DNA from: an uncultured bacterium
GTDB taxonomy: Bacteria; Omnitrophota; Omnitrophia; Omnitrophales; JACQLI01
NCBI GenBank assembly: GCA_964372875.1
Contig: CAYJTB010000001.1
Location: 27,860-91,859 of the forward strand
Direction of reading: 5' to 3'
Length of the DNA stretch: 64,000 nucleotides
Shown here: positions 3,414 to 43,027 of the stretch, piece after piece
How positions within the stretch are numbered: the first letter of the stretch is position 1
Layout: the number at the start of each line of letters is the position of its first letter
Notes under the pieces: generated by a model
What the model was told of the DNA's origin: nothing
The model's database searches: none
The model's input: only the letters and a program-made list of their open reading frames with translations
Translations under genes and position numbers: made by a program

Positions 3414-3803
3414 ATGCCACGTATTCTTGGAGTTGACGTTCCAGCGGAAAAGCGGACCGAAATTGCTTTAACTTATGTTTATGGCATCGGCAATTCACTT
3501 GCGAAGAAAGTACTCGCCTTGGCCAAGATCAATCCCAATAAGCGTGCGAAAGAACTGACGGAAAAAGAAATTTATGAAATCACCAATGTGATCCAGCGCG
3601 CGGGGATTAAGGTCGAAGGCGATGTGCGCCGGGAGACCCAGCAAAACATCCGACGGTTGATTGATATTCGCTCTTACCGGGGCCAGCGCCACATCCGGGG
3701 TTTACCCGCTCGCGGGCAAAGGACTCATACCAATGCGCGGACCCGAAAAGGTCCAAGAAAGACAGTGGGCGGACTGCTTAAAAAGCCACCCGCACCTAAA
3801 TAA
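3414..3803 (+). CDS. rpsM: 30S ribosomal protein S13
   Basis: 129 aa, [10 protein letters not shown]...basic C-terminus; alpha-operon order. Confidence 0.95.
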
Positions 3804-3841
3804 GGTTTCGTTAACGAAAAGGAGAATCATTTTAGAAAGTT

Positions 3842-4216
3842 ATGGCGACCAAGAAAAAGAAAGTTAGAAATATAACCAAAGGCGTGGTTCACATCACAGC
3901 CAGTTTTAACAACACCGTGATTACAGTGACGGATCCCCAAGGCAATGCCATTTGCTGGTCAAGCGCCGGTGCCGCGGGTTTTAAAGGATCTAAAAAGTCG
4001 ACGCCTTTTGCAGCCCAACGGGCTTCTGAGATGGCCGCCAAAAAAGCGATGGAAAACGGTCTAAAGGAAGTTGAAGTTTTTGTGAACGGTCCGGGTTCGG
4101 GACGCGAATCTGCGATCCGGGCTCTGCAAGCCGCGGGGCTCCGGGTAACGGCCATCAAAGATGTGACACCTTTGCCTCACAATGGCTGCCGTCCTCCAAA
4201 GCGGAGGAGAGTCTAA
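3842..4216 (+). CDS. rpsK: 30S ribosomal protein S11
   Basis: 124 aa, [18 protein letters not shown]...[16 protein letters not shown]. Confidence 0.95.
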
Positions 4217-4842
4217 TGGCTAGGATCGTTCAAACCGTTTGCCGTCTCTGCCGCCGCGAAGGGATGAAATTATTCCTTAAAGGCATTCGCTGCACCGGAG
4301 ACAAATGCGCGATTGAAAGAAGAAACCAGCCTCCCGGACAACACGGCAGGCGCCGTCCCAAACTCTCGGATTACGGTCTGCAGCTTCGTGAAAAACAAAA
4401 GACCAAACGTATTTATGGAATGCTCGAAAAACAATTCCGCGTTTTCTTCGCCAGGGCCACGCGCGCGCCGGGCGCCACGGGCGAGAAGCTGATCGAGCTT
4501 CTGGAAAGAAGGCTGGATAATGTAGTCTACAGGCTTCATTGGGCAAGTTCGCGCCGCGAGGCCCGTCAAACGGTGAATCATAATAATATTTTTGTAAACG
4601 GCCGGGCCGTCAACATCGCATCCTTCATCGTCCGTGCCGGAGATAAGATCCAGGTTCGCAGTACAGAAAAAATGAATAAGCGAATCCGGGGGATTCTCGG
4701 GATGCTTCAAGATCGTCCTAGGGTCGAATGGCTGAAACCGGATGCTCAAGATTTGACGGCTGAAGTCTTAAGGCTCCCAACCAAGGCGGACGCAGCACTG
4801 CCGGTTGAAGAGTCGCTTATTGTGGAATTGTATTCAAAGTAA
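4216..4842 (+). CDS. rpsD: 30S ribosomal protein S4
   Basis: 208 aa, N-terminal Cys cluster, S4 domain; overlaps rpsK stop by 1 nt. Confidence 0.95.
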   Translation: MARIVQTVCRLCRREGMKLFLKGIRCTGDKCAIERRNQPPGQHGRRRPKLSDYGLQLREKQKTKRIYGMLEKQFRVFFARATRAPGATGEKLIELLERRLDNVVYRLHWASSRREARQTVNHNNIFVNGRAVNIASFIVRAGDKIQVRSTEKMNKRIRGILGMLQDRPRVEWLKPDAQDLTAEVLRLPTKADAALPVEESLIVELYSK

Positions 4843-9657: not shown

Positions 9658-10662
9658 TTGAAATCACAAGCATCTACTGGTTATAATGCTCCCATGTTGC
9701 GTCGTCTTGTCCTTACCCTAGGTTTTCTTATTTTAGGCACCCTTCCTGCCTGGGCCCAGAAGCAGCTTGTCGATCGGGTGGCCGCTGTTATCAACGACGA
9801 AGCCATTACCCAAAGCGAGCTAGAGATGTATCTGCGTCCCATTTATGAAGGCCTGAAACAGCAATTTGAAGGCGAAGAATTAATGAACCGCTTGAATGAG
9901 ACCCGGCTTAAACTTCTAAATCAAATGATCGAAGACCGTCTTGTTTTTCAAAAAGCCAAGGCCATGGAACTCAAAGCGGAGGACAGTGAGATTGAAGAAG
10001 AAGTGGATAGGCTCAAAAAGCGCTACCCTTCTGAGGAGGCCTTGGAAAAAGAAATGACGAGTCAGGGTTACAGCATGTCAGGGCTTCGGGAAAATATACG
10101 CCGGCAAATCCTCATTCGTAAACTTCAAGACATCGAAGTAAAGTCCCGCGTTATCGTCTCACCCCGCGAGATTGAAGAATATTACAAGTCGCATATCGGT
10201 GAATTCGAACAAGAATTAAGAATGAAGCTGCTTTCCATCACCATTCGTAAAAGTAAAGAGGCCGAGGAAAAAGGACTTGTGGATGAAGCGGCGAAGAAAA
10301 AAATCGAATCCGTTGAATTCCGGATCCGGAGTGGCGAAGACTTTGAGGATTTGGCCCGTCAATTCTCTGAAGATGCCCATGCAGCCGAGGGCGGCCAAGT
10401 CGGCTGGGTCCGTAAAGGCGAATTTCTTCCCTCCATCGAAAAAGCCCTTCACGAATTAAACCAAGGAGCGATTTCCCCAGTGCTGGAAACCGCGGCGGGT
10501 TACCATCTTTTTAGGGTGGAGGAAAAAGATCCCGGGAAGGTGAGTTCGTTGGAGGAAGTACGGGAGAAAATTCGTTCGGTCCTATTCCGCGAAAAGGCTG
10601 AAAAGCGTTTCAAGGAGTGGATGGAAGAATTAAAGACCCAAGCCTACATCTCGGTCCGGTGA
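9658..10662 (+). CDS. SurA-like periplasmic chaperone / parvulin-type peptidyl-prolyl isomerase
   Basis: Signal peptide (MLRRLVLTLGFLILGTLPAWAQ, probable start at 9694), SurA N-domain-like helical region, PpiC domain GGQVGWVRKGEF...GYHLFRVEEK; upstream of pdxA as in the surA-pdxA-rsmA cluster. Confidence 0.8.
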   Translation: MKSQASTGYNAPMLRRLVLTLGFLILGTLPAWAQKQLVDRVAAVINDEAITQSELEMYLRPIYEGLKQQFEGEELMNRLNETRLKLLNQMIEDRLVFQKAKAMELKAEDSEIEEEVDRLKKRYPSEEALEKEMTSQGYSMSGLRENIRRQILIRKLQDIEVKSRVIVSPREIEEYYKSHIGEFEQELRMKLLSITIRKSKEAEEKGLVDEAAKKKIESVEFRIRSGEDFEDLARQFSEDAHAAEGGQVGWVRKGEFLPSIEKALHELNQGAISPVLETAAGYHLFRVEEKDPGKVSSLEEVREKIRSVLFREKAEKRFKEWMEELKTQAYISVR

Positions 10663-15036: not shown

Positions 15037-15087
15037 GTTGTTCTAACTCCCTATTGGGCCTCATTTTATGCTACTTGGGGGTCATTT

Positions 15088-15116
15088 GACAAGTTACGTT
15101 CCAGAGGGTATCTTTT
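15088..15116 (+). promoter_or_regulatory. sigma70-like promoter (TTGACA-17-TATCTT) in divergent region upstream of giant gene
   Basis: ttgacaagttacgttccagagggtatctt. Confidence 0.4.
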
Positions 15117-15315: not shown

Positions 15316-18300
15316 ATGACCCTACGCGCGAAAAATTTTTATCTACGCACTGTCGCAGCTTTCACCGCAATCATTTTTTGCTGGAATAGCCTTGCTTGGC
15401 CGCTTCCCGAGGTTGCGGTTCCCCAGGCCGGCAAAACTTTCGATCTCATTCCAAAAGAACTCGGAACCGTCGATGAATACGAACTGCCGGACGCTTCACA
15501 TTCCGCACCCTTTGTCATACATATTCAAGATCTCCACGCAGCACCCGAAGCTCAAGAAAAAATCCTGGACATTCTTAAATTTTTACATTCAAAAAAGAAA
15601 CTTCTCGTAGCGGTCGAAGGAGCCGCCGGAACGCTTCATCCTGAGTATTTAGATTTCTTTCCGCAATACCCGCGTGTCACAAACGCACTCGTTCAAGATT
15701 TGGTAAGTGAGAGCATGCTTACAGGGCCGGCGTTATTCGCATGGGAGAGGTATGAGAGTAAGCCGTCATTGCACCCGTCATTGCGAGGACGTAAGTCCGA
15801 AGCAATCTCAAATCCTAGATTGCTTCGTCGGGCCTTTGGCCCTCCTCACAATGACAATAGCGTCCAATTCATAGGCGTCGAGACGCCGCGTCTTTATCGC
15901 GAAAACCTTAAAGCCTATCGCGATTTTTTCCAGGATGAAGAAAAAAATCAGCAGGATTTGAAATCTTTCCAAACCTCATTGGAATCGGCCCAAACGAAGA
16001 TTTTCAATCCTGATTTGAGGAAATTTGTCCAAGAAGTCCAGAGACGTAAAGATGGAAAGTTTCAATCGGGAAAGGCCTCGCCCGATCTTGCGGCTTACAT
16101 TCGCTTTCTCGCGGATTCAAGCCGAGATCATTTGGGAGTTGATCTAAGAGATAAATTCGAACAGATCCGTTTTCCCAATCTAACCCGCATTCTTTTCTTG
16201 ATGGAATTCGAATCAAAAATCACTGCTCACCAGCGCCGGGTTCTGCATTCTGAAATTGAATCCAAAAAACTTTTTGATGAAATCACACTTCTCGAAACAA
16301 GACTGCGGCAAATACTGGTTAAAAAGCCGGAAGAAACAAAACTTCTTGAGATCCTTGATGATTTCAAGTTGCTTGAGAAGTTATTCCATTTGGAACTGAC
16401 TCGCGAGGAATATTACCAAGTCGTCAACAGGGTTTTGGAAATCAATCCGTCGAATTTACATCAGCGTTTGGCAACCATTGCTGAGATTGCTTCGACCTCG
16501 TCTGAAATGTTGTCTCGCAATGACGCCGATTACGAAACTGCTCTGCGTTTTTACCGCTTAGCCATTCGCAGAGACAAAGCCCTTCTTGAAAATGCCTTGC
16601 GAGAGGCAGCTAAAACGGAGAACTCGTCTCAAGAAAAACCACTCATCGTTCTTGTTACCGGCGGTTTTCACACTTCAGGGGTGAGCGAGCTTCTCAAAGA
16701 AAAGAAAATTCCTTACGCCGTCGTCACGCCTGCCTTAGCAAAAACCAAAGCCAATCAAGACCAATATCACAAACTGATGTCCGGCAAAATGTTCGCCAAA
16801 GAAGCCTCAAGCGCTTCGCCCAAGAATAACAATCTGGTGTGGGCGCAGATTCTTACAGCAAGAGATCGGTACCCGAGCCTCAATTCCGACGAGGATCAGC
16901 AAAAAATATTTTCCCACGCGACTGAAAAGTCCGGCGAGTATTTTCGAAAATTCTATCCCCAAATCTCCGAACCCAAACTGCAAGAACTTTTATCTCGCCC
17001 CGCCGGATTCTTTTCGCAAATCTCCCGTTCCGAATTGCAAAGTAGGAGCCAGATTACGAATTCGGCCATCGATGGCCGAATTGGCGGGAAAAGGGTACTG
17101 CCTTCACGTTTTCCGCGCTCGGAAGTGCGGGCGGTAGAACAGCGATTAGAAGTCAGTGGTCAGAAGACAGAAGGCTGGAGTTCAAAGATAGGAAAAATTA
17201 TCAGGAATGGCAGCGATTTTGGACTATCGAGGGTTTTCCAGCGTAGTCAGGCGAAGAATTATCGAATTCCAAGCCGCTTAGAAAAATCTCGAGGTGAAAG
17301 AATAGAAATCTCTTTAAAGGTTTTCATCGATAGCAGATCGTGGTCTCCTGTGACAATGATCGTTGCTTTAGCTGAAAGAGCGCATTCCAGCACGGCATCA
17401 TCGTCCGGGTCACGGCAGGCCTTTACCTTTGTTTTAGGTTTGACTATCAAAGCTTTCATATGGATCAATGAAATCATTTCTTCAAGCATTTCAGGCGTGA
17501 TCCATTTCTTGAGTTTAGGTTTTTCCAGTGAGCGAAGAAAGTCTTCCAGTAAGGCCGGAGATAAAGCCGCAATGAACTTGTCTTCTTCCAGGGATTCCAG
17601 AATCGAACGGCAAACGCCCGGAAAGGCGAGTCCGCTCACCAGCACATTCACATCAAGAACGACCCGACGCATACCGTTCCTGCCGGGCTTGCTTGACCAG
17701 ATTCAGAAGCTCTTTTCGGCTGAGAGGGTGTTTCTTTCGGCTTTTATCAACTTTGCGGGTCAGAGAACGGAAGCGTTCTCCCCAGGTCTTATGTTCAAGA
17801 CGACGGATCAGGGTAATGCGGTCACGGGATTTCAATTGATTGATCATGCGCTCAATTTGTTGAATGTCTACTTCCACGGCAATCTTAGGCATAGGATTTT
17901 ATCCTCCTCTTCGAATCAGTATAATTTATCGGCCTTGGCGGATCAAAATCAAAACATTTCTTCCGTTAAGCCTTCTAAGCAAAGTTCGACAGAACCGAGC
18001 CGAAGGGCCGCTTCCGGCCCCGAGAGCCGTCAGTCTCCGATCCTAAGCGTCGATAGACCCGGAGGGGCCCGTGGGGAGGTGCGGGCAAAAGAACAGAGGT
18101 CAGAAGTCAGAGAGCAGAGGATAGAGGTCATAAGTCAGAGATCAGAAGGAAAAATTACTTCGAGTGGCGGCGATTTTGGTAGCGTTCGATCAGGTACATC
18201 ACGCCCCAGGCAAGAAATATCAAAACCAAAACAAGAGACACGGTTATCACGTTTTATTTACCCCTTTTCCGAATCTCTTGGGCAAGCCATCCAAGAAATA

Positions 18301-27300: not shown

Positions 27301-28719
27301 ATAAAAAATCATTTTCTGACCGCGCTTCATCATTTCATTTGGGAACACAGCGACTTTGAAGATGCGAAGAATTTAGCCAGAGAACTCGGTAACTTGAGCC
27401 TAATCAGTTCTTTGTTGGGTGAGCCCCTCAGTAAAAGACAGGCCGCTTTTTATAAGCGCGCACTTTTGAGCTCTGACCGCACGCAGCAGAAGATCGCGCT
27501 TGGCTTCTTCGAGACTTTCCCTGATCTTGAAAAAATGGACTGGAAAGAGGAAGTCGTTGGTAAACTTAAAGAAATCGTAATGGATGAATCCGAAGATTCT
27601 GAATTTAGAAAATATGCCTTTGAAGCGTTGACAAACAATATTCTTCTTATAGAGCCAGCCTTTTTGGCGCCTTATTTTAAAGAGCCGCGCAGCCAACGGT
27701 TTCGAATCATTTCTTCGGATAAAAAAGGCGCTCGGATTTTATTTTCGGTTCTTCAGAAGAAATTTGGGTCGCCTTTAAAGGACCCGCCCCTTTTTAAAAA
27801 AAGTTCCGAGTCCATCATTTTATCAGGAGAATTTACGACAGGTCTGAGAAATGCTGCCATGTTGATCCGATTTGTAAGGCAGGCCTACGGCCGGGAGATA
27901 TCCTTTGATGAGTCCCGCGGCTTGCTTAAAGAGATGAAAAAGAAACAAGACAGATCCCGGCGTTCCGAAATACGGAGTGAAAGCTTGGATTCGACGTGGG
28001 AGTTGAGGGAGGATGCGAACAAAGGAAAGCTTGCGGAACTTGGAAAACAATTTGCGCCGATGATTGAGAGTCTTTGGAAACGCTCCGAGGTCAGGCACAG
28101 GCTTGCGACGGACGGATTTTTGAATCTTTCAAAGCTGATTGAAATTCCCAAAGCCGAAGCGGCTGAACCTGCGATTGTAGCTGCGCTTTTGATCCGTGCA
28201 GAACAATCCCAAACCGGAACGCCGGCTTTGGACAAACATTTGCAAGTGTGGCAGTCGCGCATGGGAATCAGTTCGGTTGCTAAAGAAAATGAAGTCGTAA
28301 TCCTCTTAGAAGGTGCGGCGTTTAAACTCGGACTCTTGGCTGCGATCGACGGAATTAGCCCGGCAGCTCCGAAGATCGGCGTTGTGGCGCCCAAGGCTTA
28401 CCATTCTTTAGTGGAAGAAGTCAGAAGCGGTCTTAGAACCGGGCAAGAACTGATCGAAGGGGAGAAGCTTCCCGAAATTTTAAATCAAATTGCTCAGATG
28501 AAACAGAAGCCAAGCCGCTTAACGATTTGGGCTTCGAAGGAAGACTCGTTCTTAACAGCAGCGTTCATCAAACGTTTTCTTAAAGATCCAAACCTGAATG
28601 TAGAAGTAAAGACCGTGACGCAGCGCGATCTTGACCGCGCCAACGCGTCTCACCCCGGCTTTGCGGAACGTATCAAGAACTTCCTCGCCGCCGTCAAATC
28701 CCTCAGCATTTCCGCTTAA
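15316..28719 (+). CDS. giant secreted multi-domain protein (4467 aa): signal peptide, helical N-region, 7-blade WD40-like beta-propeller, three ~70-aa WN..HP repeats, Pol-beta-like nucleotidyltransferase-like motif, HEAT/ARM-like helical C-terminus; contains recurrent RSEVR motifs and in-frame GC-rich hairpin repeats
   Basis: Single uninterrupted 13.4-kb ORF; N-terminus MTLRAKNFYLRTVAAFTAIIFCWNSLAWP; WD40-like blades ~18.55-19.5 kb; GSLGVLGSAVRDKSDLNLMVV at ~25.49 kb; RBS aggaaag upstream. Confidence 0.8.
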   Translation: MTLRAKNFYLRTVAAFTAIIFCWNSLAWPLPEVAVPQAGKTFDLIPKELGTVDEYELPDASHSAPFVIHIQDLHAAPEAQEKILDILKFLHSKKKLLVAVEGAAGTLHPEYLDFFPQYPRVTNALVQDLVSESMLTGPALFAWERYESKPSLHPSLRGRKSEAISNPRLLRRAFGPPHNDNSVQFIGVETPRLYRENLKAYRDFFQDEEKNQQDLKSFQTSLESAQTKIFNPDLRKFVQEVQRRKDGKFQSGKASPDLAAYIRFLADSSRDHLGVDLRDKFEQIRFPNLTRILFLMEFESKITAHQRRVLHSEIESKKLFDEITLLETRLRQILVKKPEETKLLEILDDFKLLEKLFHLELTREEYYQVVNRVLEINPSNLHQRLATIAEIASTSSEMLSRNDADYETALRFYRLAIRRDKALLENALREAAKTENSSQEKPLIVLVTGGFHTSGVSELLKEKKIPYAVVTPALAKTKANQDQYHKLMSGKMFAKEASSASPKNNNLVWAQILTARDRYPSLNSDEDQQKIFSHATEKSGEYFRKFYPQISEPKLQELLSRPAGFFSQISRSELQSRSQITNSAIDGRIGGKRVLPSRFPRSEVRAVEQRLEVSGQKTEGWSSKIGKIIRNGSDFGLSRVFQRSQAKNYRIPSRLEKSRGERIEISLKVFIDSRSWSPVTMIVALAERAHSSTASSSGSRQAFTFVLGLTIKAFIWINEIISSSISGVIHFLSLGFSSERRKSSSKAGDKAAMNLSSSRDSRIERQTPGKASPLTSTFTSRTTRRIPFLPGLLDQIQKLFSAERVFLSAFINFAGQRTEAFSPGLMFKTTDQGNAVTGFQLIDHALNLLNVYFHGNLRHRILSSSSNQYNLSALADQNQNISSVKPSKQSSTEPSRRAASGPESRQSPILSVDRPGGARGEVRAKEQRSEVREQRIEVISQRSEGKITSSGGDFGSVRSGTSRPRQEISKPKQETRLSRFIYPFSESLGQAIQEIRIMMATIIERTALAFNEVFQMFSLTTRAANTRLTALMIPSANKFRLLDGKRVFISMLQAPQPNTGLILSQILFLEYEISRRSEVREYISDWTVSTLETKQPVLAAAFSTDGKILAAGARNNVHLTNGDLRKWSVEFRAHRNEIAKLISFQRGNRNFFATASRIGSISLWNSNGGLIRRLEQLNPEDFQPVLGLSVSKNGDWLAATDMDVMKIYDLTGMSSPKTIPITDQSRNHFVQFSPDGTSIASTYYGEIRIEDIKTGKLRANLHHEASLKKSMDTSALAFSKGDDVAAASTDGKIRIWRWKGERQPQVLDFLSPAREASHLIFSPNGKRLAASTADQIEIWKLNGKVWRHEETIYPHLDAVTEILFSPDAKRFMAAGIWHGSGRVRIWSKETPARAEVRTDGIPTTWFRIFNRLDNLNREVWKQKDLDIIDLTNQLEKKLISLFGSQLLYGIWTWNTSVREVRFGLRSGPLSFELTANPHQEIPEREIKRGYTVTMNAMLTSAAESQHAKKWGDSEPEERGETLLEIPIAEIDRSQPVIYFGSFYFDTDKEKKETIIKQEILFLPGEERNYQIYIWHNNALEKTTLEKEGGRTYAVWRTPEAEPSLSFQYVALHDAQGKDLGEISRLILKAGNSETYRNNLQFLYGPIWRDETSSFSHGSRTSVKPSVFEDLISAAPGKRIAALLGLAIEYQYVPEGQVFSRMLLTELEKLEGLPYGRIAALREIAEMSPEEAHERFKDPYDQPSAIPAVMTLVASLAPRLLERMKNWDQEFYEELKGVLQKPDLKTLFEEGEVKFYEADHLWAASDNRSFFPGVVAFSRSKDRQIIVPIYFGNEPKDEDGKVWFKILDATSLGIENSNAATYQVYDHMLGEFYKTLHSGEKLYREGWSIGIPVVPGKLDRAGFIQKGRHVQFLEMRRTQSLTTATRIGLPENLVKTQGILTDLLREMSKLEIYFFISKTGATDRRMVPVDNVYEFFSSYAGKKGEHWNEIVSEPLQLTVSSPGFKRQTLRHALRMMQEALQLTYSFPGTLKGNDPHLSFYHDKLIEETQLLKTSDQTGKWAHVEFEIASSHFEMPDHWDQPAENSLRQRIQALREALEIPFVLMLKAPSGAKDPYHIEPVGNLHQRLPYFVLKDDFLKNPHDPRFPYFSKGAQLSFGLEAPMDSARLEQVRNILVASLEGRMSAATLKRAIEVTMHQWQREDSFFSESRSEARRVPRTLAVHPVRLAPGTPLYPDRSGPGVAVQSHWNSARSEVRTEKSERLTRSNAGELLKPRRYLKNKIYGIGRITAVEGKFGGKDPQGSVEVAFLNKHGFEETKEFSTWSLFQLPEQNPEEAFFSVTRQEIEDFKNQKRQGQAAYKEEIDKKRIAQREGRQWMEAQSPTFSLYDSPFSARAGRPLAADYRKLMQGIQDRAQGEYHLGSASIVERKILFEMLGTRLIPKTNQSETTLRINLGRRKKEFAEKLKTILDETGGLSARAVSEAEEKIMSPKDKSRALSSEWLKFRDPVTGKFATEKDIKRWIQNAIPIVERILEYEVKLLKLEKQIQIHPRPLARSEVRAAESSPTKKVAFFNLRTADDSSIVLPQRMSYLPVEQRLPDYSAWRIRVGRESGNLHAFLRDVLGPRWHWNVKGETKAYFLYKSLPKKFKQFIGKRKPPTGFDMEALGLLVVNRSDIFYIPMEETVNESVVTVLDKNDRDAINEFISHHAMIQTVPQNIRIFPPVRYESVKFGLGEDPVSSPKPGSIEVVYHPRLMVNDLGKADKEIIFETSFDLTQLRPRKKITAELEGRFYQELKSRLRNTWQIRIGNRTVEMPRAKDLPAKVQDVEEILLPGNNRKTASLHFNDAVSFYLDGILMRSNVPVPKDIHAWIFWKTRIRFNDQEISVETTEGNNVLTYRTDETGEHLRVNGEPTDNSVLQNMIRQMGSAFSILAFQMARDPEQTDYLRESGKETIDDEFDQWLGRSEVREEGQPAQNGNGHAIQKKQRGRGFRTKEEALQALAERQAKGLSSDPKSLQRHLAEGGNPTLLTFIYRWNQKHPEEPIEMKLLPTRTHKYESKGEIIEALEKRRLEKGESANYRMQLRLHIEEGGDRTLYQAVLRWNHDHPEDLINLPLDPHVAHGQLGKYQTKQDGLNTLSERKKQGLGNSTSDLRQTKSDGGDWPLLVFIRHWNKKHPKDRIALENADQNFNRLSPVAVWHSQTQDFKTTDQKRTEWWRALQEEADHEAGKRLVESFIPSVNEIAQRLSGGRDSHYEADLIQNGNMIVLETIYPERKEDQWNPSRGVSMTEFVETRLKKEMRHRTLQEIRSSGRFSIDEPYRFSKGREKEWQVPSYDAQPQEVRINNLADERDKQSGLPVILFEEKHQIAREIGKWLIKKGFLKQVKQEGIQNLAVSMIGSLGVLGSAVRDKSDLNLMVVTDANESQAEALAEKLAQWIGGRYHEPQDSEPIRISVGKEGDYEQAIADGNGFISLLQKHKVGTDPIKGIASVEVIGIPDEDNSFSEDSLTRQKTRAAFHLAFQDPRLAEQAINGILVLENAKGAAERLAQKLPSDQENLFGYYEKFLAKQAANLRKLQESSIDSKARAEVHPNPTDSGTPQSSPDQARAEVRSSLPEQRAEKKLETRKLEIGAGISGLSGRVETSNGRVFSGSDRLPIKSTRSPQKSEWQGQPSFSLPPLRSLPQKSSPNKSISRVLLERQAAISGRVLGKALLPELLLIGPKSHAETTLPASPSGPLSGIYFSQNKIYSNINSELSDFSRSDGSTSSPSVLSKAEGRVERAEVHPNPTDSGTPPHSRPTGVSTEVSLAAPPGAPPSSPERARAEVRASVEEIIRKQMLSGDLKAFEKNFESYDREKAFELLNSISKIAKEISERIRKGEEELMVAANNGQKMQEIIDAAKILENFPNDKQIHGVHLSAIINLQEIFNLTPKALPRYRNLLEAIVKHASKKEQPHQAAAEIIESFEGEQHADSQQDQFQRNEALEFLTLDLDEKVFKETVIKNHFLTALHHFIWEHSDFEDAKNLARELGNLSLISSLLGEPLSKRQAAFYKRALLSSDRTQQKIALGFFETFPDLEKMDWKEEVVGKLKEIVMDESEDSEFRKYAFEALTNNILLIEPAFLAPYFKEPRSQRFRIISSDKKGARILFSVLQKKFGSPLKDPPLFKKSSESIILSGEFTTGLRNAAMLIRFVRQAYGREISFDESRGLLKEMKKKQDRSRRSEIRSESLDSTWELREDANKGKLAELGKQFAPMIESLWKRSEVRHRLATDGFLNLSKLIEIPKAEAAEPAIVAALLIRAEQSQTGTPALDKHLQVWQSRMGISSVAKENEVVILLEGAAFKLGLLAAIDGISPAAPKIGVVAPKAYHSLVEEVRSGLRTGQELIEGEKLPEILNQIAQMKQKPSRLTIWASKEDSFLTAAFIKRFLKDPNLNVEVKTVTQRDLDRANASHPGFAERIKNFLAAVKSLSISA
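17259..17672 (-). CDS. PIN-domain toxin (TIGR00305-like), encoded antisense inside the giant ORF
   Basis: MRRVVLDVNVLVSGL...CRDPDDDAVLECALSAKATIIVTGDHDLL: conserved acidic residues of the PIN fold. Confidence 0.75.
   Translation of the reverse strand: MRRVVLDVNVLVSGLAFPGVCRSILESLEEDKFIAALSPALLEDFLRSLEKPKLKKWITPEMLEEMISLIHMKALIVKPKTKVKACRDPDDDAVLECALSAKATIIVTGDHDLLSMKTFKEISILSPRDFSKRLGIR
17653..17892 (-). CDS. putative antitoxin partner of the nested PIN toxin
   Basis: 79-aa basic/helical protein overlapping the PIN start by 20 nt (classic TA arrangement); no recognisable fold by eye. Confidence 0.5.
   Translation of the reverse strand: MPKIAVEVDIQQIERMINQLKSRDRITLIRRLEHKTWGERFRSLTRKVDKSRKKHPLSRKELLNLVKQARQERYASGRS
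18258..18461 (-). CDS. small (67 aa) 2-TM membrane protein, antisense inside giant ORF; paralog of 26324..26533
   Basis: MKTLFPSKRRNLF...VSLVLAALVV...SLKAKAVLSIIVAIMILISW; AT-rich promoter-like region immediately upstream on the minus strand (TTGACT at 18505-18510). Confidence 0.5.
   Translation of the reverse strand: MKTLFPSKRRNLFADGIMRAVSLVLAALVVSENIWKTSLKAKAVLSIIVAIMILISWMACPRDSEKG
21972..22113 (+). repeat. in-frame GC-rich hairpin cluster inside giant ORF (paralogous to 26062-26130 and 26630-26790)
   Basis: gtgcacccg-loop-cgggtactcc flanks shared with the 26-kb copies; stems cccggtgc/gcaccggg, acccggacc/ggtccgggt, cattggaac...gttccaatg; ends in RSEVR codons. Confidence 0.5.
26062..26130 (+). 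repeat. in-frame structured repeat unit (40-nt perfect repeat + second hairpin) inside giant ORF
   Basis: gccgaggtgcacccgaatccgaccgattcgggtactcctc identical at 26062-26101 and 26644-26683; hairpin cccgaatc/gattcggg; second hairpin cctcgcc-cgatca-ggcgagg. Confidence 0.6.
26324..26533 (-). CDS. small (69 aa) 2-TM membrane protein, antisense inside giant ORF; paralog of 18258..18461
   Basis: GTG start; MKSIFLTTARRDWL...VILVLLAGVLGG...SLKWRLVVLGGLVICFYLGLIF; shares MK(S/T)(I/L)F, K.SLK...VL...V.I pattern with the other copy; AT-rich region with TTGATA upstream on minus strand. Confidence 0.5.
   Translation of the reverse strand: MKSIFLTTARRDWLAKLFQHVILVLLAGVLGGELFLKLSLKWRLVVLGGLVICFYLGLIFAASSSKEED
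26630..26790 (+). repeat. in-frame structured repeat unit, second copy, with four hairpins
   Basis: Same 40-nt repeat; additional stems actcacgcc/ggcgtgagt, cctggcggc/gccgccagg, cctcgcc-tgaacg-ggcgagg (loop differs from copy 1 while stem is kept). Confidence 0.6.
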
Positions 28720-28807: not shown

Positions 28808-29017
28808 ATGACACGAGTGACAGTTTCCCCAAAATATCAAATCGTGATCCCTAAAGAAATTAGGGAAAAGTTGGATATTCGGTGCGGACAGAAGATGGCC
28901 GTCGTAACAAGAGGGGAATGGATTATGCTGGTTCCCGATCTGCCTTTGAAACATTATCGGGGGTTTTTGAAAGGTGTGAGTTCAGAGGGGGTTCGTGACC
29001 GAAGGGACCGGTTTTGA
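28808..29017 (+). CDS. vapB: AbrB/MazE-fold antitoxin (VapB-like)
   Basis: 69 aa, MTRVTVSPKYQIVIPKEIREKLDIRCGQKMAVV swapped-hairpin motif; 4-nt overlap with downstream PIN gene. Confidence 0.75.
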   Translation: MTRVTVSPKYQIVIPKEIREKLDIRCGQKMAVVTRGEWIMLVPDLPLKHYRGFLKGVSSEGVRDRRDRF

Positions 29018-29391
29018 CGGTCATCGATTCAAGCGGTTGGATTGAGTTTTTTAGCGAAGGTCCACTTGCCTCCCATTATGAAAAGCATTTGGGGTCTTTG
29101 TCTGAGATTGTCGTTCCTACCATTGTGCTTTATGAAGTCTACAAGAAATATAAGAGAGAAAGCGGAGAGCAAGGCGCTTTGACCGCGGTGTTTCATATGC
29201 AAAAGTGCCGGATCGTACCTTTAACAGAAGAATTGAGTTTGGAGGCGGCGGATTTAAGCCTTCAATACGGACTTGCCATGGCCGATGCGATTGTTTATGC
29301 GTCGGCACTTCAGGAAAAAGCAAAGTTAATCACCAGCGATAAAGCCTTAAAAAATCTGCCTCAAGTGGTTTACTACAGTAAATCGTCCTAA
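29014..29391 (+). CDS. vapC: PIN-domain ribonuclease toxin VapC
   Basis: 125 aa, VIDSSGWIEFF...conserved Asp/Glu, ADAIVYASA, LITSD. Confidence 0.75.
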   Translation: MTVIDSSGWIEFFSEGPLASHYEKHLGSLSEIVVPTIVLYEVYKKYKRESGEQGALTAVFHMQKCRIVPLTEELSLEAADLSLQYGLAMADAIVYASALQEKAKLITSDKALKNLPQVVYYSKSS

Positions 29392-42908: not shown

Positions 42909-42979
42909 TTGCCCGATGGTGAAATGGTATCACACCGCCCTTTGGAGGCGAGGTTCCTGGTTCGAGTCCAGGTCGGGCA
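42909..42979 (+). tRNA. tRNA-Gln (anticodon TTG)
   Basis: Hand-folded cloverleaf: 7-bp acceptor tgcccga/tcgggca, D-stem gtga/tcac, anticodon loop cTTTGga, T-arm cctgg-TTCGAGT-ccagg, discriminator G; CCA not encoded. Confidence 0.7.
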
Positions 42980-43027
42980 GAACTTCGACTCGCTTCGCTC
43001 GCTCAGTCCAAGGAAGATAGAAAATAA

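Follow-up and report, generated by a model that had tools for sequence, protein, structure and literature searches.

Within the window analysed here (the whole 64,000-nucleotide (nt) stretch of contig CAYJTB010000001.1), the plus strand carries a giant open reading frame (ORF) at positions 15316–28719, which comprises 4467 codons and a stop codon and has no internal stops. The giant ORF is one real, selected, very long gene with a mosaic architecture, and every module boundary in it carries a punctuation peptide, R-[S/A]-E-x-R. A codon-usage score prefers the ORF's own frame throughout, three inserts excepted, and the base composition is even over the ORF region; the stretches with a poor codon signature in the giant frame are amino acids (aa) ~601–1100 and ~3601–3800. 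The initial annotation, which had held that an uninterrupted 13.4-kb frame cannot be chance, is borne out on this point. The chromosome that bears the gene is probably that of a member of the Omnitrophota.

Written as R-[S/A/G]-E-[V/I]-[R/H], the motif is present in 14 copies in the ORF, compared with 0.056 expected from residue shuffling (maximum of 2 in 2000 shuffles), and a 15th site reads RSEAR. Outside this frame, a single weak copy is seen in the five alternative frames and the other 50 kb of the window taken together, and the orientation and frame of the motif are always the same. The plus-strand sites are RSEVR at aa 601 (17116–17130), which marks the end of the cap segment; RGEVR at aa 919 (18070–18084); RSEVR at aa 928 (18097–18111) and aa 1076 (18541–18555); RAEVR at aa 1393 (19492–19506); the variant RSEAR at aa 2208 (21937–21951); RSEVR at aa 2250 (22063–22077), aa 2553 (22972–22986), and aa 2961 (24196–24210); two pairs of RAEVH and RAEVR, at aa 3582 and 3603 (63 nt apart) and at aa 3776 and 3818 (126 nt apart); the variant RSEIR at aa 4216 (27961–27975); and a last RSEVR at aa 4256 (28081–28095), 211 aa from the C terminus. 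The codons vary synonymously (Arg as CGC, CGT, CGA, or AGG; Ser as TCG, TCA, TCC, or TCT), as they do in the gene of one relative, and since the Arg and Ser codons are free to vary at the motif sites, it is the peptide that is conserved and not a DNA word. Copies can also follow each other in tandem with tiny spacers, as in RGEVRAKEQRSEVR of the window ORF, RAEVRRAEVR of the relative P0006, and GARLAEDIAGARLA of locus L047, an arrangement for which a structural role is not obvious.

The N terminus of the product resembles a signal peptide: MTLRAKNFYLR is followed by a hydrophobic stretch and then by ...NSLA/WP (15316–15399, plus strand). The signal or anchor that had been noted here, a positively charged and then hydrophobic start, is found with the same n-region/h-region/AxA-type layout in 15 relatives, and, as read from the sequence, the N termini across the family look like Sec signal peptides. 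The cap domain follows at aa ~40–500 (15433–16815, plus strand), with residues H74, E101, R419, and H452 invariant. Its signature, [IV]HIQ[DE]AH ... EG ... GGFHT, is present in the window ORF, and phmmer matches the domain to 24 family members with E values of 1e-11 to 1e-127. We provisionally describe the cap as resembling the Tiki/TraB/ChaN/erythromycin-esterase hydrolases, at the level of the fold only. The domain passes no Pfam threshold, Foldseek and two PDB profile searches returned no matches, and only one cap homolog matches PF04187 (E = 0.0098), which Pfam describes as "Tiki superfamily". Among the members of the Tiki/TraB superfamily are the Tiki metalloprotease, TraB/PrgY, esterases, and a haem-binding protein, and with such mixed activities a protease activity of the cap is possible but not implied. 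Unlike the Tiki, TraB/PrgY, ChaN, and erythromycin-esterase members, the cap has a helical insertion of ~250 aa, and we know of no Tiki/TraB superfamily member that heads a giant modular protein. The cap also contains an in-frame, hairpin-forming mini-insertion (15777–15855, plus strand; fold z = −4.2) that encodes a ~36-aa loop; homologs are without it and show a gap in the alignment, and residues 151–180 have a predicted local distance difference test score (pLDDT) below 50.

The N-terminal 600 aa have few relatives, in which this region either stands alone as a gene of ~400 aa with giant genes next to it or forms the N-terminal part of a longer protein. In a distant lineage (loci L002–L004, from GCA_964593065.1 and JGI contigs), the cap is a stand-alone 406-aa gene with a giant gene of 1537 aa on one flank and two, of 1256 and 9654+ aa, on the opposite flank; R[SA]ExR is absent in frame from all three.

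The window ORF belongs to a family of punctuated, N-capped giant ORFs. An exhaustive search with aa 1393–2560 returned 33 proteins, nearly all of which are mosaics of 1.3–6.3 kaa (thousand aa). Many of them share the N-terminal domain, carry 9–19 copies of R[SA]ExR compared with 0.3–0.4 expected, and end in x-[S/M/A]-A; the named relatives among the 33 are metagenome-assembled genomes (MAGs) of Candidatus Omnitrophota by their NCBI names. A scan of species-representative genomes gave 49 loci, in nearly all of which the cap opens an ORF that continues beyond the 10 kb of flanking sequence. These loci are mostly Omnitrophota, some being labelled Elusimicrobia, Planctomycetia, Auribacterota, or Eisenbacteria, and the best match is 39% identical. 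The initial annotation had linked the ORF to giant ORFs of the Omnitrophota and also to Candidate Phyla Radiation (CPR) genomes; the relatives support the first link, and nothing points to the second.

In 11 loci of the motif-bearing clade, the giant frames have 1.8 motifs per 1000 codons and the rest of the loci 0.13. The first motif after the cap falls at aa 520–680 in the relatives and the last one 210–300 aa from the end, positions that the window ORF reproduces (aa 601 and 211 aa). The Pfam domains located in relatives all fall inside segments: SecA, 2-Hacid_dh, and NIF in P0008, UDPG dehydrogenase in P0018, and DnaJ and HTH in a more distant sister clade described below. In P0016, a complete NDK domain (aa 596–732) has RSEMR on one side and RSEVR on the other. 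The window ORF shares with the family its signal-like start and cap, an enriched inter-module motif, modules held in common (a sub-domain of module S5, and S6), the position of the last motif, and a C-terminal end of the form x-[S/M/A]-A. No conserved neighbour gene, such as a dedicated protease, is found beside the family members.

The form of the motif is characteristic of each protein. The favoured residue at position 4 gives RAEVR in P0006, RSEAR in P0008, RSESR in P0020, RSEMR in P0017, and RSEVR in P0028 and the window ORF, and the probability that two sites within one protein have the same position-4 residue is 0.50; redistributing the sites at random among the proteins gives 0.22, and 0 of 5000 such shuffles attain 0.50. 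In locus L001 the motif takes the form [KR][ST]E[SAT]R. The sister clade matches in its signal-like start, its cap domain, and the sizes of its segments but is without R[SA]ExR; it has GAR[LM]A instead, with up to 13 copies per ORF. A motif that is uniform within a protein and swapped between lineages is the pattern expected of sites that co-evolve with a recogniser.

Tandem arrangements are frequent in the family. They occur in L010 (3–3872), L018 (1–9387), and L020 (2–3670), where a motif-rich giant ending in ...RSA or ...QSA is succeeded, ~100 nt on or with a slight overlap, by the next giant, headed by the signal-like start and the cap. In L006 (1594–25000), adjacent called genes of 2801 and 4999 aa abut at 9999/10001, and SecA_DEAD matches span the junction; this pair is probably one ORF of ~7.8 kaa that is broken by a single stop or sequencing error.

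Downstream of the cap and the first two inserts, the motifs delimit a series of modules, all on the plus strand. The WD40 β-propeller module (aa 1081–1392; 18556–19491) is bracketed exactly by the motifs at aa 1076 and aa 1393, and within it aa 1087–1376 (nt ~18574–19443) match PF00400 with 42.2 bits (cutoff 27) and PF12894 with 23.4 bits (cutoff 22.9); further propeller models match the same residues with E values of 1e-11 to 1e-24, and the seven blades of the initial annotation can be counted by eye. Module S5 (aa 1398–2207; 19507–21936) contains a sub-domain at aa ~1683–1916 (nt 20362–21063) that is common to ~30 other giant proteins, where it forms the end of a ~1290-aa module that carries the NCBI name alpha-glucan-phosphorylase family; the copy in the window has no Pfam match. 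Module S6 (aa 2255–2552; 22078–22971), which like the propeller has motifs on both sides, is also present in P0006, P0007, and P0008, and in all four proteins it terminates in ...P-L-[AP]-R-S-E-[VA]-R. Repeated matches to S6 were also obtained from P0031, a protein of 819 aa with ~110-aa tandem repeats; their per-domain E values are weak, and they probably reflect composition or repetitiveness rather than homology. Module S7 (aa 2558–2960; 22987–24195) is an orphan with no Pfam match and no counterpart among the collected relatives.

The part of the ORF that follows is less readily assigned. The three repeats of ~70 aa that had been described with a WN.KHPE core are real: they lie at 24259–24885, measure ~68 aa, and have W-N-x-[KD]-H-P cores at aa 3032, 3099, and 3168 (nt 24409–24885), and the first of them comes near the threshold of Arm-DNA-bind_4 (20.7 bits, cutoff 22.3). 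A likeness to sigma-70 region 2 at aa 3199–3297 (24910–25206) is not significant (NCBIfam E of 0.003–0.01, far under the cutoffs; PDB sigma factor E of 0.8). For the Pol-beta-type nucleotidyltransferase (NTase) that had been proposed next, the string GS-x11-SDLNL is present (GSLGVLGSAVRDKSDLNL at aa 3395; aa 3395–3412, 25498–25551), with Asn at the position of the second carboxylate as stated; it departs from the signature hG[GS]-x9-13-Dh[DE]h, and membership of the family is unsupported, with no Pfam, NCBIfam, or PDB-sequence match, no homologs, and a single-sequence AlphaFold2 (AF2) model of aa 3330–4467 whose pLDDT of 38 is too poor for a fold search. Module S10 (aa 3823–4215; 26782–27960) is an orphan that is predicted to be all-helical by this low-confidence model. 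Of the proposed ARM/HEAT-like tail, this model shows a helical region (aa ~3814–4210), for which there is no match to a repeat family; nor does the protein end there, as an α/β segment of ~205 aa (28096–28716; low-confidence model), ending in ...SISA, follows. S5, S7, S8, S10, and the C-terminal segment have no credible match in Pfam or NCBIfam, and word-indexed homolog searches with aa 2966–3581 and 3823–4467 gave no matches. The Pfam scan found no dockerin, TSP3, C39, or S8 domain in the ORF, and the Pfam and NCBIfam scans found no RTX-type or glycine-rich repeats and no internal cysteine protease domain. The earlier conclusion that none of the domains gives a function is incomplete, as it overlooks the motif, the hydrolase-like cap, the shared modules, and three inserts that carry antisense genes.

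These three inserts, each bracketed by motif copies, account for the interruptions of the codon signature: about 15% of the 4467-aa product (aa 606–1075 and 3582–3822) is insert-encoded and is not coding-like in the giant frame. Insert 1 spans aa 606–918 (17131–18069), where the plus-strand giant frame reads as junk, with 0 stops compared with 13–21 in the other five frames; insert 2 spans aa 933–1075 (18112–18540; 0 stops compared with 4–13); and the core of insert 3 spans aa 3608–3775 (26137–26640; 0 stops, and predicted to be unstructured by a low-confidence model). In all, the giant frame has 0 stops over 666 codons of inserts, while the other frames have 4–21 each, except for one antisense frame of insert 3. 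In random sequence, a giant frame free of stops would arise with a probability of 6e-8 for insert 1, 5e-4 for insert 2, and 1.5e-5 for insert 3, which argues that the frame is actively kept open in all three. A 51-nt direct repeat, whose copies are 76% identical and include the motif, borders insert 1, and the first ~110 nt of insert 2 are homologous to the start of insert 1. As to the open antisense frame of insert 3 (26115–26766), it extends over 210 codons and contains a 168-aa ORF with a TTG start (26115–26621) and no Pfam match; the small gene described below is in yet another frame.

On the minus strand of insert 1 lies a gene for a 137-aa PIN-domain toxin (17259–17672), which matches Pfam PIN_3 (E = 8e-18, 65.8 bits, cutoff 27) and NCBIfam TIGR00305 (84.9 bits, cutoff 29). 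An antitoxin-like partner gene of 79 aa (17653–17892, minus strand) overlaps the toxin start by 20 nt; it has a weak, sub-cutoff similarity to VapB15 (28 bits) and a GGAGGA 8 nt before its ATG, and a consensus scan places a promoter-like TTGATC-17-TATACT at 17946–17918, well positioned for it. With a PIN gene above the TIGR00305 threshold and an overlapping upstream partner, as in type II VapBC modules, the cassette is a PIN/VapB-type toxin-antitoxin pair. Inserts 2 and 3 each carry on the minus strand a gene for a membrane-type protein with two hydrophobic helices, of 67 aa (18258–18461) and 69 aa (26324–26533), respectively; the two are collinear paralogs (E = 5e-4), and the latter is preceded by a promoter-like TTAACT-17-TATATT at 26569–26541 (consensus scan). 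The two-helix proteins are like type I toxins in size and hydrophobicity, and their mRNAs would be fully complementary to the mRNA of the giant gene; unlike classical type I toxins, they are larger (~68 aa) and have two helices, and toxicity would be purely inferential. Both cassette types differ from known toxin-antitoxin modules in being nested opposite a coding gene whose own frame stays open.

The two-helix gene is not confined to the window. A profile built from three two-helix copies and run against six-frame fragments of all fetched loci matched L018 twice (E = 1e-10 and 1.5e-8) and L020 and L008 more weakly, and L001 also has an antisense two-helix homolog in a giant ORF. This makes 7 copies in 5 genomes, all opposite a giant ORF, although in 2 of the 4 other genomes the match is weak. 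All 7 lie in a bracket of 148–166 host codons with the lineage's own motif at both sides, and in each the small gene starts 54–67 codons past the upstream motif. Depending on the case, the host is read in frame 0, 1, or 2 with respect to the small gene; the host frame is nonetheless always open, and its peptide is always junk-like. A relative frame that varies while the host stays open and the bracket stays the same points to a recurrent type of cassette and not to one inherited accident. The other fetched loci yielded no antisense PIN gene, and L005 and L006 have no credible antisense genes.

Several known kinds of insertion were considered for the inserts and discarded. The signatures of integron attC sites, inteins, and translational bypassing are absent, and none of these would need an open frame. 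A GTGCG at the motif was considered as an intron 5′ end and dropped, because Rfam detects no known RNA family between 15 and 29 kb, including group I/II intron parts and ribozymes.

The poor codon signal of the giant frame at aa ~601–1100 and 3601–3800, the presence there of genuine genes on the opposite strand, and exact look-ups that returned neither the giant protein nor a neighbouring one would all fit a chimeric assembly or a decaying pseudogene that stays in frame by luck, with the antisense genes alone living in these regions. We consider this exceedingly improbable. The 4467 codons are stop-free, the 666 insert codons included; the same bracket architecture recurs in independent assemblies of other samples; and the base composition is even and the layout of the N and C termini fits the family.

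Three of the motif sites are further distinguished by hairpin-forming DNA on the plus strand. Array a (21952–22062) consists of four consecutive hairpins between motif copies 126 nt apart and has a minimum free energy (MFE) of −84 kcal/mol (z = −5.95). Array b (26059–26136) lies between RAEVH at aa 3582 and RAEVR at aa 3603, and array c (26641–26781), with four perfect hairpins and an MFE of −97 kcal/mol (z = −7.5), lies between RAEVH at aa 3776 and RAEVR at aa 3818; the three arrays span z values of −2.6 to −7.5. They are related through a shared core with three compensatory pair changes, and a duplicated GCCGAGGTGC flanks the arrays of 63 or 126 nt. Six of the 10 strongest local inverted repeats of the window sit at these three motif sites, and within the window copies of the hairpin element occur inside the giant gene only; the exact core is absent from the metagenome collection. 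Family-wide, folding is more stable at motif sites than in other stretches of the same ORFs (mean z = −1.09, n = 88, with GC content uncontrolled). An element of comparable build is seen in L056, the gene of P0035, where a 21-aa unit, RSETRRDA[MT]TERSSGTHPIE[AV]R[SA]EMR, recurs at host aa 2055–2081, 2165–2191, and 1227–1253; it lies between duplicated motifs and is encoded by hairpin-forming DNA, with a unit length of 63 nt as in array b.

In their size (63–126 nt), their hairpin-forming potential, and the surface or linker peptide that they add with the frame kept, these mini-insertions are like Rickettsia palindromic elements, which are selfish in-frame palindromes in coding genes. Unlike the latter, three of the four elements in the window are placed exactly at punctuation motifs, between duplicated copies. 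The hairpins and the stable folding at motif sites indicate that DNA- or RNA-level processes also act there, and one may ask whether the motif DNA is in origin a recombination or insertion site (att-like, or the target of a repeat element), with the peptide a by-product. The direct repeat around the toxin-antitoxin insert, the duplicated sequence and compensatory changes at the hairpin arrays, the concentration of inverted repeats at motif sites, and the shuffling of modules between proteins would each suit such an origin. It does not account for codons that are highly degenerate within and between genes, for a motif found in one frame and one orientation only, or for a peptide that is kept between proteins 25–40% identical and replaced, in a sister clade of the same architecture, by GARLA with unrelated DNA. 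As a full explanation we therefore rate it as quite improbable, and a role in recombination could in any case coexist with a role in the protein, being compatible with the reading that we prefer.

That preferred reading, to which we give about an even chance of being correct, is that the giant ORF encodes an exported polyprotein that is cut at its motifs, with the insert peptides removed as well. The R-[S/A]-E-x-R sites would be proteolytic processing sites at which the modules are released as separate proteins, and the peptides encoded by the inserts, being bracketed by motifs, would be discarded by the same cuts. The cutting enzyme might be the N-terminal cap domain, which we put forward because it is the only candidate linked universally, or another protease that co-evolves with the motif. 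The product would then consist of a signal-like start, a hydrolase-like cap, a variable set of independently folding modules (the WD40 propeller and orphans in the window ORF; NDK, UDP-glucose dehydrogenase, and glucan enzymes in relatives), and a C-terminal segment with small end residues. Processing of this kind would explain the motif at every boundary, its homogenisation by lineage, the tandem copies, the embedding of oligomer-forming enzymes, and the toleration of stop-free inserts.

The same layout could also belong to a giant scaffold that is never cleaved, in which the motif is a hydrophilic linker or a docking site, to which a chaperone, a secretion motor, or the propeller of the protein itself might bind, for example, and the inserts are tolerated, disordered spacers. 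In the models, the motifs do lie in low-confidence or unstructured regions and insert 3 is predicted to be disordered; SecA-like modules in some relatives make recognition by a motor in cis conceivable; and the literature leaves it open what becomes of the giant proteins of Omnitrophota. Against this, a linker needs neither four fixed residues nor homogenisation within a protein, nor would it be swapped wholesale for an unrelated motif in a sister clade, and tandem motifs 4–9 residues apart would be useless as linkers. NDK and UDP-glucose dehydrogenase are normally oligomeric enzymes, and it is hard to picture them working within one chain. An uncleaved scaffold is in our judgement unlikely.

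A number of points weigh against a cleaved polyprotein. The cutting is a prediction from sequence, and the motif could be a simple hydrophilic linker. A Sec signal is hard to square with a 4.4-kaa chain and with the cytoplasmic-looking modules of relatives (NDK, DnaJ, HTH, and sugar-nucleotide enzymes). The direct DNA repeats and hairpins at motif sites show that DNA-level processes are at work as well. The C-terminal domain of the window ORF has no hmmsearch match among the relatives, and hhalign gives a weak E of 0.13 at a collinear position; the C-terminal domains of the relatives themselves split into at least two sequence clusters. Finally, the giants of L027, L031, and L053 have the same cap and no over-represented pentapeptide, as does that of L030, and in these proteins the punctuation is either more degenerate or absent.

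Giant genes of the Omnitrophota have been described before (West-Roberts et al. 2023 preprint, 10.1101/2023.11.21.568195; Seymour et al. 2023, PMC10066038; Nielsen & Lui 2026, 10.64898/2026.06.07.730766), the last of these studies defining a "multi-enzyme metabolic cluster" class of giants. Cleavage of such proteins has been proposed with no sites given; the cleavage points are stated to be unknown, and their absence to block structural analysis and the question of whether the products are processed at all (10.1101/2023.11.21.568195). These studies of Omnitrophota giants contain no report of a punctuation motif, a shared Tiki-like cap, or nested antisense genes, and the words "motif", "linker", "cleav", and "antisense" are absent from the text of 10.64898/2026.06.07.730766. 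Literature searches for the motif strings, and for polyproteins in these phyla, found nothing relevant. The window ORF is like the published giants in its probable phylum, its very great length, its many unrelated domains, and its N-terminal signal or transmembrane features, and its relatives share with them sugar-metabolism enzymes and SecA-like domains. It is unlike them in size, with 4.5 kaa compared with at least 10–30 kaa, and in being without dockerin, TSP3, C39, and S8 domains.

The logic of the proposed polyprotein resembles that of two established systems, MARTX toxins and viral polyproteins, although the window ORF lacks the features that define membership of either. MARTX toxins of Vibrio are giant, exported proteins with conserved ends, effector modules that are swapped by recombination, and proteolytic release between the modules. 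Unlike them, the window ORF is without RTX or glycine-rich repeats and a cysteine protease domain, has a Sec-like N terminus in place of a C-terminal type I secretion signal, and uses a fixed pentapeptide as the separator, at which cleavage would have to occur. Viral polyproteins yield many mature products from one ORF, being cut at short motifs that change from lineage to lineage together with the protease. The window ORF differs in that it is carried on a bacterial chromosome with housekeeping genes around it; a viral protease fold was not detected in it, and its processing is a proposal.

A bolder version of this proposal, which we advance tentatively and regard as somewhat doubtful, joins all of the above: Omnitrophota and related bacteria would make true exported polyproteins, at the head of which a Tiki-like protease cuts at R[SA]ExR, [KR][ST]ExR, or GAR[LM]A to free dozens of enzymes or effectors, and their giant genes would host a dedicated class of nested, motif-bracketed cassettes that are stop-free in the host frame and encode, on the antisense strand, a toxin-antitoxin pair or a small, toxin-like membrane protein. 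Such cassettes would be silent in the protein, their peptide being removed by the flanking sites in an intron-like manner. They might also act as addiction modules that stabilise a costly giant gene, or exploit it, a speculation prompted by the toxin-antitoxin pair and by the small hydrophobic proteins, to whose mRNAs the giant transcript is perfectly antisense.

The presence of the motif at module boundaries makes the processing question testable, as it predicts exact neo-termini for metaproteomics, and it offers principled unit boundaries at which giant ORFs can be divided for structure prediction, as well as a candidate pair of protease and substrate. Should the motif be a cleavage site, the family would represent cellular polyproteins as large in scale as those that are otherwise encountered among viruses and MARTX toxins. 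Conserved antisense genes within an open coding frame are rare in bacteria and bear on the persistence of overlapping genes and on selfish cassettes; they also carry a warning for annotation, since parts of "giant proteins" may not be protein modules.

The giant ORF lies among ordinary chromosomal genes, with Mfd, SurA, and PdxA upstream and KsgA, GatA, GatB, and TsaD downstream, and a PEGA-domain gene and a glycosyltransferase gene are oriented divergently with respect to it. A promoter-like site on the plus strand, TTGACA-17-TATCTT (15086–15114), was found by consensus scan ~200 nt 5′ of the ORF; only its position speaks for it, as such sites are no more numerous in the region than expected from shuffled sequence. 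The sole tRNA gene of the window is a tRNA-Gln(TTG) at 42909–42981. Directly 3′ of the giant ORF, the plus strand carries a further toxin-antitoxin pair (28809–29391), in which a small AbrB/SpoVT-like ORF, MTRVTVSPKYQIVIPKEIREKL..., precedes a PIN/VapC gene (29014–29391; Pfam PIN, E = 8e-21). With PIN genes both antisense inside insert 1 and just downstream of the giant ORF, the region therefore holds two PIN modules.

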